Shown here: one piece after another, positions 22,109-30,289 of the stretch
Layout: each line of letters starts with the position of its first letter
How positions within the stretch are numbered: the stretch's first letter is position 1
DNA from: Promethearchaeota archaeon
GTDB lineage: Archaea > Asgardarchaeota > Hermodarchaeia > Hermodarchaeales > Hermodarchaeaceae
Assembly (NCBI GenBank): GCA_048937435.1
Contig: JBHLNC010000001.1
Coordinates: 1-41,981 of the forward strand
Direction: 5' to 3'
DNA: 41,981 bases
Notes under the pieces: generated by a model
Databases searched by the model: none
The model's input: only the letters and a program-made list of their open reading frames with translations
What the model was told of the DNA's origin: nothing
Translations under genes and position numbers: made by a program

Positions 22109-23422
22109 CTATACACGTTTTGTCGACTCGTCATCAGAGGCATTTTTCGCTTTTTCATCTTTCGATAGGGCAATTAAGTGTGGAAGTTTGTTGTCTAGGA
22201 AGGCTCTAACATTATCTAAACAGGTTTGATCCAAATTAATACAATGAATGTCTATTAGGGCATTTCGTAAAATATTGAACGGGGTTTCTCCTACTCCACC
22301 GGCCAGAAGCACATTGGCATTGACATGTAAAATCGCTTTTGCTGAATTTATGCCACGTTGTTTATTTTGTGAACTACCTGGATTTTTCATAGTTTTTGAA
22401 TGAAAAAGGTCTCCATGTTTAACATCTATGAGCAAGAAATATGGTGCTGTCTCGAAATTAGGGTTAGGTAGAGATTCTGGGGTTGAATTAGCCTTATTGA
22501 CAGGAATCGCTATCCGAAACGATTCAATTCTTGTAGGTTCAAGATGAACTAAAAATGTCAGCATTTCAGGAAAGGTAGCTGTTACCCTCCGTTCTATTTC
22601 CTCCGAAACCCTATAAGCTTGTGATAGAGACAAATCTGCTGCTACCTCTATGTGCATTTCACCAAAGCAGATAGGTCCTGCATGACGGACCTTTATATCG
22701 TGTATGCCTTGGACTCCCCTAACATTTGAAGCTAATTTTTCAATTTCCTCTACTTGTTCAGGATTCGTCACAGCATCCATCAAGACCAATACAGAATTAT
22801 AAGAAATCTCCAAGCTACTCTTCAAAATAACAAGACCTATGAAAAAACCAACCACAGCCTCAGCCCACCAAATGCCTATTCCTTCAAAAACTAGTCCGAT
22901 AAGAACTACAAATGATGCATAGAAATCCATTCTGTAATCCTGACCAACACTAGAAACAGCTTCACTCCCAGTTTCTCTTCCAACTTTTTTCAGATACCAA
23001 GACTTCACAAAAATGATAGGAACTGAAATGGTGGCCACAATTAAGGCAATATCATAAAACACAATTTCTATTGGTAAAAGAATGTGTAATATTGCCTGCC
23101 ATAAAACAAGTAATCCAGTTCCAAATATGAAGATTGCTACAATTAAAGCTGCCATTGTCTCCGCCTTGAAATACCCATAGGGATACTTCTGGCTCGGGGA
23201 GCGTTGAGCTAGCCATAGTCCAAGGTACACGGTTGATCCAGCAATCAAATCAGTAAAGGAATCGATAGCCTGGGCAAAGAGACCAACACTTCCTGAAAAA
23301 TAACCTATACTACCCTTTGTCAAGGCAAGGAGAATTACAACAACCATTGCCCATTTGATGACTCGTCGAGACCGCTCCAATTGTCGATCAATAATCGCCT
23401 TTGGTTGTGTCAAAATAATCAA
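22109..23422 (-). CDS. Cation diffusion facilitator (CDF) transporter fused to a C-terminal NifX/NifB-like (dinitrogenase FeMo-cofactor-binding fold) domain
   Basis: The N-terminal 6-TM CDF core has FTDLIAGS...KYPYGYFKAETMAAL. A cytoplasmic ZT-dimer-like segment follows. The last ~140 aa (FRIAIPVNK...NFETAPYFLLIDV...NVLLAGGVGETPFNILRNALIDI) match the Nitro_FeMo-Co pattern. Confidence 0.85.
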   Translation of the reverse strand: MIILTQPKAIIDRQLERSRRVIKWAMVVVILLALTKGSIGYFSGSVGLFAQAIDSFTDLIAGSTVYLGLWLAQRSPSQKYPYGYFKAETMAALIVAIFIFGTGLLVLWQAILHILLPIEIVFYDIALIVATISVPIIFVKSWYLKKVGRETGSEAVSSVGQDYRMDFYASFVVLIGLVFEGIGIWWAEAVVGFFIGLVILKSSLEISYNSVLVLMDAVTNPEQVEEIEKLASNVRGVQGIHDIKVRHAGPICFGEMHIEVAADLSLSQAYRVSEEIERRVTATFPEMLTFLVHLEPTRIESFRIAIPVNKANSTPESLPNPNFETAPYFLLIDVKHGDLFHSKTMKNPGSSQNKQRGINSAKAILHVNANVLLAGGVGETPFNILRNALIDIHCINLDQTCLDNVRAFLDNKLPHLIALSKDEKAKNASDDESTKRV

Positions 23423-24380: not shown

Positions 24381-24575
24381 TTATTCTAGTTTGACCTTGA
24401 CGGCTTTGAGACCGCGGTCGCCTTCTTCAACTTCGAAGGTGACTTTATCGCCTTCGTTGAGGGCCTTATTGCCTTCGACTTCGCTACCGTGAACAAATAC
24501 GTCTGTTCCGGATTCTCGTTCGATGAAGCCGTAGTTTCGGTCGCGGTTAAACCATTTGACAGTTCCTTTTTCCAT
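24381..24575 (-). CDS. csp: Cold-shock domain protein (CspA family)
   Basis: [19 protein letters not shown]...VFVH contains the RNP1 (NYGFI) and RNP2 (VFVH) motifs. The track start (GTG at 24584) lies inside the SD, so the ATG at 24575 is the real start. Confidence 0.9.
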
Positions 24576-24580
24576 ATGAT

Positions 24581-24587
24581 TCACCTC
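24581..24587 (-). promoter_or_regulatory. Shine-Dalgarno GAGGTGA for csp
   Basis: The minus strand reads CGAGGTGAATCATATG. There is a 5-nt spacer (ATCAT) between the SD and the ATG, and the SD is complementary to the conserved 16S 3' end. Confidence 0.6.
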
Positions 24588-24849: not shown

Positions 24850-25698
24850 TTAAAAATCCATTATGGGCTTTGGAGCCACGATTTCTTCTTTAGGTGCGGT
24901 AAGTTTCAAGGCTTCATTGATGATATCTAAGGCTTTTTCGCGGTTATTGGGATCGATAGCGACCATTCCATAGGCTTTGATGCCCAGAATTCGTTGCACT
25001 AGCTGAGGTGATAATGCGCCCGGTAGATCTTGTTTATTAGCAATAGCCAGAAGCTGTGCGGCAATGTCTTTGCGGCGAATTAGGTCGATGATATCTTTGC
25101 TGTTCAGAACATTTTCGAGGGTTGAGTCAGTAACGAGGAGGATGATGCGGCTGCCACGGAAGTAGAGTTCCCAGAGTTTGCGGAAGCGGTCTTGTCCAGC
25201 AAAGTCCCAGGTGGAGATTTCGTAGGTGCCGATGCGGGCGCCTTCGATTTTTTGGATGTCAATGGCGATGGTCGGGACATAGCTTGTGGGAGGAACACCT
25301 CCATTTAGTAGAGTAACCAGAGTGGTTTTCCCGACGCCACCGTATCCGATGATGCTGACTTTGAGGGTGGTGACGACATAGTCGTCGACTTTTTCCATAA
25401 AGTCTTCGTATTCGACTTCGTAACTGATAACACGACGGAATTCATAGGTGACACGGTCGAGTTTTTCGCGGAGGGTATCATCGTCGTCCACACTTTCTGC
25501 ACAAAGTACGACTACACCGCGTCCGAGGGGTTTTCCGATGTATTTGATGGGACCAATTTCCTCGATAAGGGAATCTTGGGCCTCTTTGACGCGACCAGCG
25601 AAATCTTGCATTTCACCTTGATTTATGGTGATGATCCAGAATTTCTTCTGAACGACGATTTCGTCTCGTGCGTCGATGATGAAAACGTGGTGTATCAT
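24850..25698 (-). CDS. Small GTPase (Arf/Rab-like, Ras superfamily) with N-terminal longin/roadblock-like domain
   Basis: G1 is GYGGVGKT (aa 118-125). The switch-I Thr is in YVPTIAID. G3 is WDFAGQ (aa 164-169) and G4 is NKQD (aa 221-224). The N-terminal ~110 aa begin MIHHVFIIDARDEIVVQKKF, a longin-like first strand. Confidence 0.85.
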   Translation of the reverse strand: MIHHVFIIDARDEIVVQKKFWIITINQGEMQDFAGRVKEAQDSLIEEIGPIKYIGKPLGRGVVVLCAESVDDDDTLREKLDRVTYEFRRVISYEVEYEDFMEKVDDYVVTTLKVSIIGYGGVGKTTLVTLLNGGVPPTSYVPTIAIDIQKIEGARIGTYEISTWDFAGQDRFRKLWELYFRGSRIILLVTDSTLENVLNSKDIIDLIRRKDIAAQLLAIANKQDLPGALSPQLVQRILGIKAYGMVAIDPNNREKALDIINEALKLTAPKEEIVAPKPIMDF

Positions 25699-25839
25699 CC
25701 GGTATCCCCTGGTGACAGCATCCGCTATTGTCTTTTGTGTATTTCGGGTGAAGCTATTTCAACTTTCCGCACCAAAATAGAGAAGGAAGGTTTATGTTTA
25801 CTTTTGCATAAGGTTCATATGGTCGGCAACTAAAGCACT

Positions 25840-26610
25840 GTGGAGTCGATTTCGGTGGAAGTAACAAATCTAGGCAGTGGCGCATCGCTACTTTCTCCAG
25901 ACCGGGTTTTATCTGGCTTAATGATTGAAACTGCCGGCGAACCACTTATTTTTGATATGGGTGCCGGCGTGTTGCATCGTTTGTCGTGCAGTTTAGTTGA
26001 GTTAACACGGATTGAGCATTTGTTCATCAGTCATCTGCACGTGGATCATTGTTCAGATATTGTGGCGTTAGTCCAAAGCTTATGGCTAATGGGCTATGAA
26101 AAGACACTTAATGTGTATGGACCAAAGGCTATCCTGAAGATGGGAGAAGCGATTGGTGAGATGTTTCCATATCTTATTGGAAAAATCAAGATAAAATCCC
26201 ACACCATTTCTCCTGAGTTTCAAGTAAAGTCAAAGAACTGGACAGTCAAAGCGTTTCCTGTGAACCATGGCGACTTTGAAGCCTATGGCTATCACCTCGA
26301 AGCTGAGGGAAAGCGTATTGTATATTCAGGTGACACTGCACCAAGCGAAGATTTGGTAAAGGCTGCCAAAGGCGCAGATTTACTAATTCACGAATGCTCC
26401 CTTCCAGACCGTATGAAAGGAATGGCTCCAAATCATTCCACACCTGGTGAAGTCGGGAAGATAGCTTCGGACGCAGGTGTCAAAACCTTAGTGATTACCC
26501 ATTTGTATCCTGAGCTGATAGAAGAATTAGGTGACGCCCTTCGAAGTATTCGAGCAACCTTTTCTGGGAAAATCATTGTCCCACGCGATACCCAGATCAT
26601 TACCTTATAA
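25840..26610 (+). CDS. MBL-fold metallo-hydrolase
   Basis: HxHxDH motif (SHLHVDHCSD), later His/Asp ligands (YSGDT, LIHEC) and an N-terminal beta-strand LGSGAS typical of RNase Z/MBL proteins. GTG start. Confidence 0.8.
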   Translation: MESISVEVTNLGSGASLLSPDRVLSGLMIETAGEPLIFDMGAGVLHRLSCSLVELTRIEHLFISHLHVDHCSDIVALVQSLWLMGYEKTLNVYGPKAILKMGEAIGEMFPYLIGKIKIKSHTISPEFQVKSKNWTVKAFPVNHGDFEAYGYHLEAEGKRIVYSGDTAPSEDLVKAAKGADLLIHECSLPDRMKGMAPNHSTPGEVGKIASDAGVKTLVITHLYPELIEELGDALRSIRATFSGKIIVPRDTQIITL

Positions 26611-26657: not shown

Positions 26658-27131
26658 ATGAACGAGCGAGAATTCCAAGACATGTTACACCAGGCTGTAC
26701 CCATTGAGCAATATATGCATGAGTGTTCAGAAGAGTGTAAACCGAAATACAACACCCGTCGAGTGGAATACACACTAAAACCGGACATACTTGAATCGAT
26801 TAAGACATTTGTTGACCAGTTTATTGTCGTGACTATTAGCGCTGATTGGTGTAAAGATTGCATAGCCAATGTACCGGTGCTTGATTTGGTTCACGAGGCT
26901 ACAGGCCTTCCTGTGTATATCTTGGGTGGTGTGAAAACTGATCCTCTGAATCCCGATCGACAATGGGCGGTTCCACCAAGTCCTCCTGAAGTGGATATAT
27001 TGGATATCAAAGCGATTCCAACGATTCTAATCTATACAAAGAATGGAAAGGAAATTGGTCGCATCATCGAGAACCCATCGATAAAACCCTCACTCGAAGA
27101 GGAACTCCTTTACTTCATGGAAAAAGGGTAA
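26658..27131 (+). CDS. Thioredoxin-like fold protein
   Basis: WCKDC (CxxC) active-site motif in SADWCKDCIANVPVL and a cis-Pro context IPTILIY. 157 aa. Confidence 0.75.
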   Translation: MNEREFQDMLHQAVPIEQYMHECSEECKPKYNTRRVEYTLKPDILESIKTFVDQFIVVTISADWCKDCIANVPVLDLVHEATGLPVYILGGVKTDPLNPDRQWAVPPSPPEVDILDIKAIPTILIYTKNGKEIGRIIENPSIKPSLEEELLYFMEKG

Positions 27132-27628: not shown

Positions 27629-30289
27629 TTGTCTTATCGGATCTGTCCTCGTTGTTCAGGGTATGTAGAAGTACGACCGCTAGGGAAGCATTTCAAGATT
27701 CGGTGTGCCCAATGTGGAGCCAGCTATAGGACTAAACCTGGCGAGGTAAATGATCCTGTTGCAGCGTATCTGCGTTTCATGGACGTTATGGAGAGTGGTG
27801 AACCGGCTCAAAAAGCTGATGTGAAGACCAGACAACCTCCCTCTCGATATGACCCTGAACCGAAACGTCCACCTCGGTCAAAGGAAGAATGGGAGAAAGT
27901 ATTGAAACAAGCGGGAGTGGAATCGGTTGACCAGCTTCCAGAGGTGGTTCAGCGTATTCTTAGTGATTCTGCGTATCATTTAGTAAAATATCGTCAATTT
28001 CCTGAAACCGCTCCTGAACCTGGTTGTCAGATTAAGGATGCGTCGTTGAATGACCGATTGAAAGCTGTTCTCGAAGGTCAAGGTGTTACTCAGTTGTTCA
28101 AGTTTCAGGAGGAAGCTTTGCAGCATATTCTTGCTGGGCGGGATGTTGTCATTTCGGCACCTACTGCAACGGGAAAGACTGAGGCCTTTGCCTTGCCCAT
28201 TATTGAACAGATTCTAGCCCGACAAAAGGGTTGGGGACCATTACGAGCGGCAGAAAAACGTGCAGTACAAGCAGTATTCATCTATCCCACGAAGGCATTA
28301 GCGCGTGATCAAGCCGGAAAACTTGCCACTCTAGCTTCCAGTGTCAGTTTGGATGTAGCTGTGTTAGATGGTGACACACCAAAGTCTGAACGTGCTTCGA
28401 TTTTCCGGCAACCTCCTGATATTCTCATCACCAACCCAGATATGCTACATGTTCACCTAATTCGTCCACGAGACCCCATTCGAAGGCTGATTCGAACGGC
28501 CCAACATGTGGTCTTAGATGAGTTGCACGTGTATGTGGGAGCCTTTGGATCCAACGTGCATTTTCTTTTACGTCGTTTACAACGGATTTGTCCTCCGCTC
28601 CAATTGATTGGGGCATCAGCAACGATTGCTAATGCACAAGAGTTTGCTGAGCTCCTTTTTGGACGGTCTGTGGTTGCGATTCATTGTGCTACAGGGAAGA
28701 AGGGGATTATTCATTTTTTGATGTTGTATCCTGAACGGGTGAGCCAAAGCACAATGATTGCTAGCGTGGCTCAAGAATTGGTTCACAATGATATGAAAAC
28801 GCTGGTGTTTGCGAATACCCATAAGAACGCTGAGGTCATTAATCTGATTGCTCGACGGACACGGATGTCTAGTGCGGTTCATCGAGCGGGGTTACCAATG
28901 TCTTATCGTCGGAAAGTGGAAGATGATTTCAGGCGGGGTGAATTGGACCTGCTTGTTTCGACCCCCACTTTGGAGTTAGGGATTGACATAGGCGACCTAG
29001 AAGGCGTTGTGTCTATGTTGGTAGGAATTACTCGTCTGACTCAACGGATTGGTCGTGCTGGGCGAAAGGGTCAGGATAGTATTGCGGTATTGGCTCTAAG
29101 AGCGAATGATGCCATCAGCACTTATTATCGCGAACACCCAGAGGACTATTTCACAGATATTGATCCTGCTTATGTTGAACCGCACAACGAAGTTGTGGCG
29201 CATCATCAACTGTTAGCCGCATCCTTGGATAAGCCGTTGATTCAGGATGAATTTGCTGAGTTTGAACCAGTCATAGAACAATTACTCAAAGAAGGTTTGA
29301 TTTCCGAATCAAGTGGAAACCTGGGACCGAATATTATTGCAGCTCGTCAGATACTCGCGCGATATTCTATTCGAGGTATTGGTGACACCGTTCAAATCGT
29401 GCACAAAGGGAAAATTATTGGCGAGCGTCAAATGCCCATGGCAATGGGTGAACTACACCCTGGTGCATTCTATCTGCACGGAGGAACCACCTATGAATCA
29501 CTGGAATTCGAGTACCGCCATGGCGTAGGGAGAGCTGTTGTGGAGCGCCTTCCTGCTGGTCACCGTGAGATGACTCAACCGCTCCGCCATGTTGACCCTG
29601 AAGTCATCCGAGTATTAAACACACGTCAAGCGTACGGCATCACTGTACATTATGCTGACCTGCGTATGACAGAAGTTGTAACAGGTTATACGATTAGGGA
29701 CATCTATACTGACAAGATTCTCAAGATTGAAAGTTTGGATCAACCCTTGGAATTCACCTATCCCACGAAAGGCTTCTTTTTTACTGCTCCTCACCCCATG
29801 AAAGCAATCAAAGCAACATTGGAAAGAAAACAAGTAAAATCCAAACCAGAGCGGATTCTAAACGGGTCTGATGAAGACGAAGAGATTACAGAAGAGGACC
29901 TTCTAATTGGAGGATTTCATGCTTTGGAGCACACGCTGATTGAAAGTAGTGACATGTTAACAGGTGGTGGAAGCCATGGGATTGGTGGTGTATCCATTGG
30001 TACGACTGGACTCATTTTCATCTATGATGGGAGTCCAGGTGGGAGTGGATTATCTAAATTGCTTTACGATCGTCTGGAAGAAGCGTTCCGACGAGTGACG
30101 GTTATCATTAAGGAGTGTGCTTGTGAGGATTTGGATGGATGTCCAGCATGCACCTACTCGTATCGGTGTGGGAACAACAATTGGCCTCTCTTCAAAGATG
30201 GTGCCTATGAGGCAGCAGATTTAGCATTGAAAGGTGTGAAGGTGAACACCGAAGTAAGTCCTGAACTCACAGAAGAACCCATGGTATAG
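27629..30289 (+). CDS. DExH-box helicase with C-terminal DUF1998/MrfA-type Zn-binding domain and N-terminal zinc ribbon
   Basis: Helicase motifs: Q (FKFQEEAL), I (SAPTATGKTEAF), II (LDELH), III (SAT), V (TPTLELGIDIG) and VI (QRIGRAGRKG). The C-terminal four-Cys cluster is CACEDLDGCPACTYSYRC. The N-terminal ribbon is CPRC...CAQC. TTG start. Confidence 0.9.
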   Translation: MSYRICPRCSGYVEVRPLGKHFKIRCAQCGASYRTKPGEVNDPVAAYLRFMDVMESGEPAQKADVKTRQPPSRYDPEPKRPPRSKEEWEKVLKQAGVESVDQLPEVVQRILSDSAYHLVKYRQFPETAPEPGCQIKDASLNDRLKAVLEGQGVTQLFKFQEEALQHILAGRDVVISAPTATGKTEAFALPIIEQILARQKGWGPLRAAEKRAVQAVFIYPTKALARDQAGKLATLASSVSLDVAVLDGDTPKSERASIFRQPPDILITNPDMLHVHLIRPRDPIRRLIRTAQHVVLDELHVYVGAFGSNVHFLLRRLQRICPPLQLIGASATIANAQEFAELLFGRSVVAIHCATGKKGIIHFLMLYPERVSQSTMIASVAQELVHNDMKTLVFANTHKNAEVINLIARRTRMSSAVHRAGLPMSYRRKVEDDFRRGELDLLVSTPTLELGIDIGDLEGVVSMLVGITRLTQRIGRAGRKGQDSIAVLALRANDAISTYYREHPEDYFTDIDPAYVEPHNEVVAHHQLLAASLDKPLIQDEFAEFEPVIEQLLKEGLISESSGNLGPNIIAARQILARYSIRGIGDTVQIVHKGKIIGERQMPMAMGELHPGAFYLHGGTTYESLEFEYRHGVGRAVVERLPAGHREMTQPLRHVDPEVIRVLNTRQAYGITVHYADLRMTEVVTGYTIRDIYTDKILKIESLDQPLEFTYPTKGFFFTAPHPMKAIKATLERKQVKSKPERILNGSDEDEEITEEDLLIGGFHALEHTLIESSDMLTGGGSHGIGGVSIGTTGLIFIYDGSPGGSGLSKLLYDRLEEAFRRVTVIIKECACEDLDGCPACTYSYRCGNNNWPLFKDGAYEAADLALKGVKVNTEVSPELTEEPMV

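Follow-up and report, generated by a model that had tools for sequence, protein, structure and literature searches.

A predicted longin domain fused to an Arf-like small GTPase of an Asgard-only lineage in a Hermodarchaeia genome

Proteins joining a longin domain to a small GTPase were reported in 2016 from Lokiarchaeum, in which five longin domains are fused to lokiarchaeal Arf-like GTPases (Klinger et al., 2016, summarised in PMC4917890). Since then, longin-GTPase, GTPase-roadblock and longin-GTPase-roadblock proteins have been described from Ca. Prometheoarchaeum MK-D1 (Tran et al., 2024, PMC10933270), and longin N-termini were recognised in 2025 on some Asgard Arf-like (AArf) proteins (PMC11914678). 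ArfL, the group that includes the five Lokiarchaeum fusions (Klinger et al., 2016), is restricted to Asgardarchaeota and forms a clade apart from the Arf, Ras-like, Rag and MglA groups; it was first called Arf-like, but later work showed that it has no direct relationship to Arf (10.1101/2024.02.28.582541; PMC11914678). Here we analyse a gene of this design located at positions 24850-25698, on the minus strand, of a 41,981-nucleotide stretch (the window) of contig JBHLNC010000001.1 from a Promethearchaeota archaeon of the Hermodarchaeia (GenBank assembly GCA_048937435.1). We are confident that its product combines a longin domain with an Arf-like GTPase of an Asgard-only lineage. Taken as a whole, namely as a two-domain GTP switch of an Asgard-specific lineage whose longin domain acts as a platform, the interpretation is moderately probable, a judgement blending this identity with a more tentative role.

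The gene is a single open reading frame (ORF) of 282 codons whose product (P0001) begins with MIHHVFII. A word-indexed search retrieved more than 1100 homologues, with 100% query coverage, and the close ones share the MIH start and a length of 282-284 amino acids. Those carrying an organism name are annotated as "ADP-ribosylation factor-like protein", and GenBank contains a 98%-identical protein with an Arf-like name. The gene is a genuine, conserved feature, matched far beyond chance. An earlier reading made from the letters alone (the sequence-only reading) had taken the fusion of a GTPase with a longin-type domain as a hallmark of Asgard genomes, in agreement with the published cases (PMC4917890, PMC10933270, PMC11914678) and with the homologues carrying an organism name, all of which are from Asgardarchaeota (Hermodarchaeota, Hodarchaeota, Thorarchaeota or Promethearchaeota). 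The architecture has been known since 2016, and the sequence-only reading correctly recognised a known design. What is new here is the assignment of the N-terminal domain to the longin rather than the roadblock type, which is backed at the sequence level; the position of the G domain, which falls outside the Arf/ArfR/Rag clade in our reconstructions; and the near-universal fusion within the family, whose distribution is largely complementary to that of ArfR. The features of the gene are as follows, all on the minus strand.

24850..25698, minus: whole gene, stop codon included, encoding the 282-residue longin plus Arf-like GTPase protein P0001 (ORF list and translation)
25375..25698, minus: residues 1-108, predicted longin domain, beta-beta-alpha-beta-beta-beta-alpha-alpha (AlphaFold2 model, structure matches, family profile)
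24895..25374, minus: residues 109-268, small GTPase domain, Arf-like, probable ArfL group (Pfam, relatives, Foldseek, trees)
25324..25347, minus: residues 118-125, G1/P-loop GYGGVGKT
25258..25275, minus: residues 142-147, switch I/G2 PTIAID, with T143
25159..25209, minus: G3 WDFAGQ (residues 164-169) with candidate catalytic Q169, plus switch II DRFRKLWELYF
25027..25038, minus: residues 221-224, G4 NKQD, guanine specificity
24952..24963, minus: residues 246-249, degenerate G5 VAID, with conserved A247
24853..24894, minus: residues 269-282, C-terminal tail ending in IMDF (low confidence, predicted local distance difference test, pLDDT, 52-53)

The N-terminal domain

The N-terminal residues had been read as a small domain of the longin or roadblock type, to be checked by structure prediction against both families. 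AlphaFold2 models built with a 31-row family alignment (A1) returned a longin fold, with a pLDDT of 83 and a predicted template-modelling score of 0.73 for the full-length protein, and a pLDDT of 93.3 for the N-domain modelled alone. According to DSSP, the modelled N-domain comprises strands at residues 2-8, 14-19, 44-48, 51-58 and 61-68 and helices at residues 27-40, 73-91 and 97-108, which corresponds to the longin order of elements, with five strands, no N-terminal helix and two C-terminal helices. In an exhaustive comparison of this model with 48,161 PDB representatives (VIA-align), the top 19 matches were all longin domains spanning residues 1-110, including VAMP7 (Z 12.9 over 107 residues, root mean square deviation 2.6), Sybl1 and delta-COP (both 12.2), synbindin/TRAPPC4 (12.1), sedlin (11.8), AP-3 mu (11.7), AP sigma (11.6) and Sec22 (11.5), as well as Fuz and Lst4. 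The Foldseek search agreed, with AP-2 sigma, zeta-COP and AP-1 sigma as top matches and AP-3 mu also among them.

Longin matches in VIA-align spanned 107-110 residues with Z of 10-12.9, whereas those to roadblock, MglB, MglC and LAMTOR proteins reached Z of 8-10 and ended near residue 92, i.e. without the last helix; SRX domains scored 8.5-9.9. Roadblock domains follow the order alpha-beta-beta-alpha-beta-beta-beta, with the helix first, whereas the query model opens with a strand at residue 2. A roadblock/LC7 identity was therefore rejected on element order and match coverage, and only the longin half of the initial proposal is retained, supported by both structure and family profile.

At the sequence level, the N-terminal ~110 residues of the query searched alone against Pfam gave no significant match, the only one listed being DUF5634 (E 0.03). 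A profile of the subfamily N-domains gave weak matches that were all to longins (AP-3 sigma, AP-3 mu, delta-COP and Mon1, E 0.1-0.7). A broader profile of 76 family N-domains (A3) matched AP-2 sigma with E 6.7e-6, profile positions 1-105 aligning to residues 1-101, followed by AP-3 and AP-4 sigma, AP-3 mu and zeta/delta-COP up to E 6e-3, with VAMP7, Mon1 and Bet5 ranking lower. When the same 76 N-domains were scanned singly, Fuz_longin_1 was found in 8 (best E 3.5e-9) and Clat_adaptor_s in 6. The predicted structure and the family profile together indicate that the N-domain is a longin domain.

The ranking of profile A3, in which AP-2/3/4 sigma, AP-3 mu and zeta/delta-COP come ahead of the SNARE, Mon1 and TRAPP longins, could be taken as the trace of a pre-eukaryotic "Arf plus adaptor" arrangement, that is, a sigma-adaptin/zeta-COP-type longin joined to an Arf-like switch and related by descent to Arf-AP/COPI or SR-beta-SRX. 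Pointing in the same direction are the matches to SRX domains and two traits also seen in sigma-adaptins, namely an N-terminal MI(R/H) and an acidic turn following strand 5. Nevertheless, SNARE, TRAPP and adaptor longins tie structurally (Z 11.5-12.9), and the likeness of a small and ancient fold is no proof of descent. In addition, the sampled genome families with true Arf relatives yielded no member of the family, and no eukaryotic one occurs in our data. In the complexes of Arf1 with AP and COPI, Arf touches mainly the large subunits, which also counts against such a remnant. We consider this descent very improbable, and just as doubtful the related idea that the family is an ancient covalent pairing, sister or ancestor to the partnerships that Arf-family GTPases form in eukaryotes with coat or receptor longins (AP/COPI small and medium chains, SRX/SR-beta). 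If the latter were true, the longin domain would hold the place, and perhaps a nucleotide-coupled role, of the Arf N-terminal helix.

The GTPase domain and its phylogenetic placement

The four motifs named in the sequence-only reading (GYGGVGKT, PTIAID, WDFAGQ and NKQD) are present at the positions listed above, and the signatures of the Ras superfamily can be recognised in them: G1 GxxxxGK[ST], the switch I Thr, G3 DxxG and G4 [NT]KxD. In the 31-sequence family alignment, G118, G123, N221, Q223 and D224 are invariant, and K124, T143, D165, G168, Q169, K222 and A247 are conserved in at least 90% of the sequences. Every residue for Mg-GTP binding and hydrolysis is retained (the P-loop Lys/Thr, T143, DxxGQ with Q169, and NKQD). 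The G5 motif had been reported as not evident in its canonical SAK/SAL form. SAK is indeed missing, but conservation of the key alanine, A247, makes G5 look degenerate rather than lost; in the model, VAID sits in a loop that connects the last strand (242-244) to the last helix (250-267), and the flanking Ser and Lys are not present.

Residues 111-242 match the Pfam Arf family (PF00025) with 69.9 bits (E 2.4e-19, cut-off 22.3). Roc, Ras and MMR_HSR1 also scored above their cut-offs, as did the NCBIfam small_GTP model TIGR00231 (52.8 bits, cut-off 42.5), while the Rag/Gtr model PF04670 remained below its own (11.5 bits, cut-off 22). Because PF00025 also has matches in 12 of 14 control prokaryote genomes, this match is not specific to the Arf family. 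Among solved structures, those closest by sequence are Arl8A, Arf1 and Arf6 (E ~1e-15), and Foldseek with the full-length model retrieved GTP-form Arf1, Arl1, Arf6, Arl6 and the Asgard GerdArfR1, with a target-normalised template-modelling (TM) score of ~0.8 and 23-27% identity. Switch I PTIAID aligns to PTIGFN of Arf and PTVGFN of Arl8, and switch II (QDRFRKLWELYF) aligns closely to QPRFRSMWERY of Arl8 and is clearly Arf-like; the interswitch is three residues longer in the query than in Arf1 according to the sequence alignment.

To place the domain, G domains only were analysed with IQ-TREE under LG+C20+F+G4. The set comprised 25 family members; the remaining small GTPases encoded in the window's own genome, including two of the family; 17 Asgard ArfR, two of them with longin N-termini; 13 eukaryotic Arf/Arl found via an ArfR query; and 9 Asgard Rag-like proteins. 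The longin-GTPase family was monophyletic with a long stem (support 100/100 and 100/99), and no eukaryotic member fell within its clade in the tree sample. In 999 of 1000 bootstraps, a split uniting Arf, ArfR and Rag left the family outside; the family also lay outside the Ras-like group from the same genome, which was monophyletic in 996 of 1000. In agreement, a hidden Markov model of the family gave 140-287 bits for its members and no more than 81 bits for any other GTPase, and PF00025 gave 70 bits for the query against 115-177 bits for the ArfR found in the scan of 151 Asgard genomes. From these comparisons, the domain resembles Arf, yet it is not placed as a member of the Arf family but in a separate, Asgard-only clade. 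Hence, of the initial reading as Arf/Rab-like, the Arf-like character within the Ras superfamily stands on Pfam, relatives and Foldseek, whereas membership of the Arf or Rab lineage does not, the domain falling in our trees into a separate clade without eukaryotic members. The distance from MglA, which had also been claimed, appears probable from the Pfam match to Arf, the Arl8A/Arf1 relatives, Foldseek and the trees, where the comparison is with one putative MglA-like outgroup protein of the same genome, assigned by sequence reading alone and lying far from the family. D165 in G3 is conserved.

As a side observation, the Asgard proteins scoring best on the Rag/Gtr Pfam model fell inside the Arf plus ArfR grouping (999 of 1000 bootstraps recovered Arf+Rag and none recovered Arf alone), which may be an effect of missing eukaryotic Rag references. 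A scan of the window's own genome with PF04670 for Rag proteins gave only weak cross-matches to other small GTPases.

Two other Asgard proteins bear on a different possibility, that the query is a true Arf-family member of the ArfR/AArf type in which a longin domain replaced the amphipathic helix. These proteins, of 334 and 386 amino acids (L017:358-1362 and L022:370-1530, both on the minus strand), carry true Arf-type motifs (GLDEAGKT/WDVPGQ and GLDRAGKT/WDIPGQ, respectively), and their long N-domains open, by sequence, like longin strands (MLKDIFFISSRD... and VISYVWIFRNSG...). They suggest that a longin-like N-terminus can be found together with an Arf-type G1, as also described for some AArf (PMC11914678), and Arf is the best Pfam and PDB match of the query. 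However, both group with ArfR in the tree and the query family does not. The Leu-Asp at positions 2-3 of G1 and the Gly at the third position of G3 are Arf-family features (PMC11914678), and both are absent from the query, which reads G-Y-G and D-F-A-G; the recovered ArfR proteins have G1 GLDxAGKT and mostly D-x-G-G-Q, some having DVAGQ. The PF00025 score of the query is also below half of the higher ArfR scores, and a profile comparison between the N-domain alignment (A2) and the L017 N-domain revealed no significant similarity (E 0.23, 12 columns). We therefore regard a true Arf identity as the least credible of the explanations considered.

Distribution, possible role and genomic setting

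A full-length profile detected the longin-GTPase family in 113 of 151 sampled Asgard genomes and in 39 of 52 genera, usually in several copies per genome (1-8). Among ~143 cluster representatives, 96 have an N-domain of 105-144 residues, and most of these start with MI(H/R) or MLR, so that the longin domain appears nearly universal in the family. The same 151-genome search did not find the family in genome families f4, f21, f13, f17, f24, f25 and f27, all of which except f13 are among those with high-scoring ArfR. The two co-occur only in f9, f12 and f23, and no ArfR-type protein (115-177 bits with PF00025) was found in the window's own genome family; the distributions of the longin-GTPase family and ArfR across the 151 genomes are thus largely complementary.

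In eukaryotes, the regulation of membrane traffic centres on the pairing of small GTPases with longin or roadblock domains, and Asgard proteins that fuse them are cited as evidence that this traffic has archaeal roots. The query is in this respect a cautionary case, since it carries an "ADP-ribosylation factor-like" annotation and eukaryote-like motifs, yet belongs to an Asgard-only branch. Since this branch was not found in the lineages with true Arf relatives, we advise against regarding it as an ancestor of Arf or Rab. For specialists, the near-universal longin domain and its profile affinity to the sigma, mu, zeta and delta adaptor longins could be of use.

The window's own genome (G000; 2.28 Mb, 77.5% complete) has five family hits, on C196, C344, C250, C281 and C307, the further ones being located as follows.

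C344:2981-3850, longin-GTPase family hit
C281:4215-5060, longin-GTPase family hit
C307:3225-4070, longin-GTPase family hit
C250:6610-7368, longin-GTPase family hit

The C281 and C307 copies, each on a short contig, are near-identical and thereby point to strain heterogeneity or to a duplicate within the assembly of this metagenome-assembled genome; the C250 copy is cut by the contig end. Across the family, many members are longer (450-750 amino acids, e.g. P0124, P0129, P0147, P0149, P0169 and P0195) and consist of an N-terminal longin-GTPase module and C-terminal extensions without a Pfam match, although P0147 has a faint CdvA-like coiled-coil match (E 7e-4). P0058 and its relatives (397 amino acids) have an N-terminal zinc ribbon instead.

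Regarding its role, the protein would cycle between GTP and GDP states, and its longin domain could serve as a built-in, fixed platform for interaction or dimerisation, linking the nucleotide state to a partner protein or a further copy of the protein itself, in a manner comparable to the roadblock domains of Rag proteins or the SRX longin binding SR-beta. We put this platform role forward tentatively. The longin domain sits where true Arf proteins have their membrane-binding amphipathic helix; in the models residues 1-108 form the folded longin domain and no Arf-type N-terminal amphipathic helix is present. The protein ends 14 residues beyond the modelled G domain, without a C-terminal roadblock domain, and because this tail contains no Cys it has no prenylation signal. 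With no amphipathic helix, lipidation site or transmembrane segment, the protein is probably soluble, and, being also compact (282 amino acids), it would be a convenient subject for studying the effect of a fused longin domain on a GTPase cycle. The tails of two 282-residue subfamilies end in MVF(E/D), MTF or IDF(L/T)P, and that of the query in IMDF, i.e. a hydrophobic-acidic-Phe motif conserved in a disordered region. Nothing clearly comparable is seen in Arf proteins, and the motif could possibly mediate binding as a short linear motif.

The longin domain could instead be an attached platform of the guanine nucleotide exchange factor (GEF) or GTPase-activating protein (GAP) type for its own G domain, acting either in cis or, in a dimer, in trans. 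It is established that small GTPases are regulated most often by longin and roadblock domains, as restated in PMC10933270 and PMC12290439. Analogues would be MglB for MglA, the longins of TRAPP and Mon1-Ccz1 for Rabs, and those of FLCN, NPRL2 and SMCR8 for Rag/Arf. The age of the fusion and its near-universal presence in the family imply a functional link between the domains, and the longin residues H3, F33, K52 and D71 are conserved among paralogues of ~20% identity. However, GAP longins of the FLCN/SMCR8/NPRL2 type have an arginine finger and, in the loop joining beta1 and beta2, a GP motif (PMC12290439), and a reading of the query sequence finds no GP motif in this loop, which is DARDE. Its R11 is kept only in the closest subfamily and not family-wide in the 31-sequence alignment. 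In the model, the last longin helix (97-107) runs straight into the strand at 110-117 with ~2 residues between them, so that a flexible linker is absent. The N-terminus of a Ras-type G domain is expected to point away from the switch face, and cis contact of the longin domain with its own switches would therefore be unlikely unless the protein dimerises. A GEF or GAP function thus seems unlikely to us. A homodimer prediction with two full-length copies and alignment A1, run without controls, scored 0.00 in both runs and weighs neither way.

Several points weigh against the reading of the protein as a platform-bearing switch of the ArfL lineage and must be considered together. Contact in cis between the longin domain and its own switch regions is possible. 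The trees contained no eukaryotic Rab, Ras, Ran, Rag or SR-beta and had a single long-branched outgroup, and bootstraps divide over the sister of the family (Arf+Rag in 46% and Ras-like in 30%). Forcing the family into a clade with eukaryotic Arf cost 26 log-likelihood units, with p-AU 0.046, so that its rejection by the approximately unbiased (AU) test is marginal. The longin-GTPase family is probably the published ArfL group, judging by matching properties. Finally, gene order in the window and at the orthologue loci indicates no conserved neighbour or operon partner.

The genes around the query are unrelated and of a housekeeping type. Upstream, at 141 bp, lies a divergent metallo-beta-lactamase-fold gene and downstream, at 265 bp, a cold-shock-domain gene; orthologues with 64-68% identity have a different neighbourhood, flanked by Peptidase_M32 and DUF362 genes. 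The overlapping short ORFs at 25104-25304, 25305-25502 and 25576-25833 were set aside as presumed alternative-frame artefacts of the conserved coding region. The neighbours in the window are listed below.

22109-23422: cation-efflux protein with a C-terminal NifX-like domain
24381-24584: cold-shock-domain protein
25840-26610: metallo-beta-lactamase-fold protein
26658-27131: thioredoxin-like protein
27629-30289: DEAD-box helicase with an MrfA zinc-binding domain

Comparison with known systems

The sigma-adaptin and zeta-COP chains (Clat_adaptor_s, PF01217) share the fold of the N-domain and are its best sequence match at the level of the family profile, but they are stand-alone subunits of heterotetrameric coats without a GTPase, and the N-domain of the query alone falls below every Pfam threshold. 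SR-beta/SRX (SR-alpha) and MglA/MglB resemble the query in pairing an Arf- or Ras-like switch with a domain of the longin or roadblock type by which its nucleotide state is read or set. In contrast to the query, their partners are separate polypeptides, and the matches of the N-domain to SRX and MglB (Z 8.4-9.9) are weaker than those to the SNARE, TRAPP and adaptor longins. Rag/Gtr proteins resemble the query in that a single chain carries both a small GTPase and a longin/roadblock-superfold domain. However, their roadblock domain is C-terminal and they dimerise through it, whereas the query has the opposite order, a longin domain and a place in a different clade.

Among Asgard proteins, ArfR/AArf (10.1101/2024.02.28.582541; PMC11914678; PDB 8OUM) have a similar G fold (target-normalised TM 0.78 and 25% identity to 8OUM). 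They differ in the GLDxAGKT motif, an often amphipathic N-terminal helix, PF00025 scores of 115-177 bits and their grouping with eukaryotic Arf, whereas the query has GYGGVGKT, WDFAGQ and 70 bits and groups apart. The MK-D1 proteins follow the same domain logic, being annotated as Arf with structures near both Rag and Arf (PMC10933270), and their genes likewise lie outside operons with regulators (Tran et al., PMC10933270). That class was termed "Rag-like" (PMC10933270), while in our tree the high-Rag-scoring Asgard proteins join Arf/ArfR and the query family stands apart.

The closest described counterpart is ArfL. The query comes from a Hermodarchaeota-type genome, and its 282-residue subfamily, not individually described, is likened to ArfL by its properties. 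Nevertheless, the two are alike in their Asgard-only range, in resembling Arf while falling outside the Arf clade, in the N-terminal longin fusion and in their patchy distribution among Asgardarchaeota.

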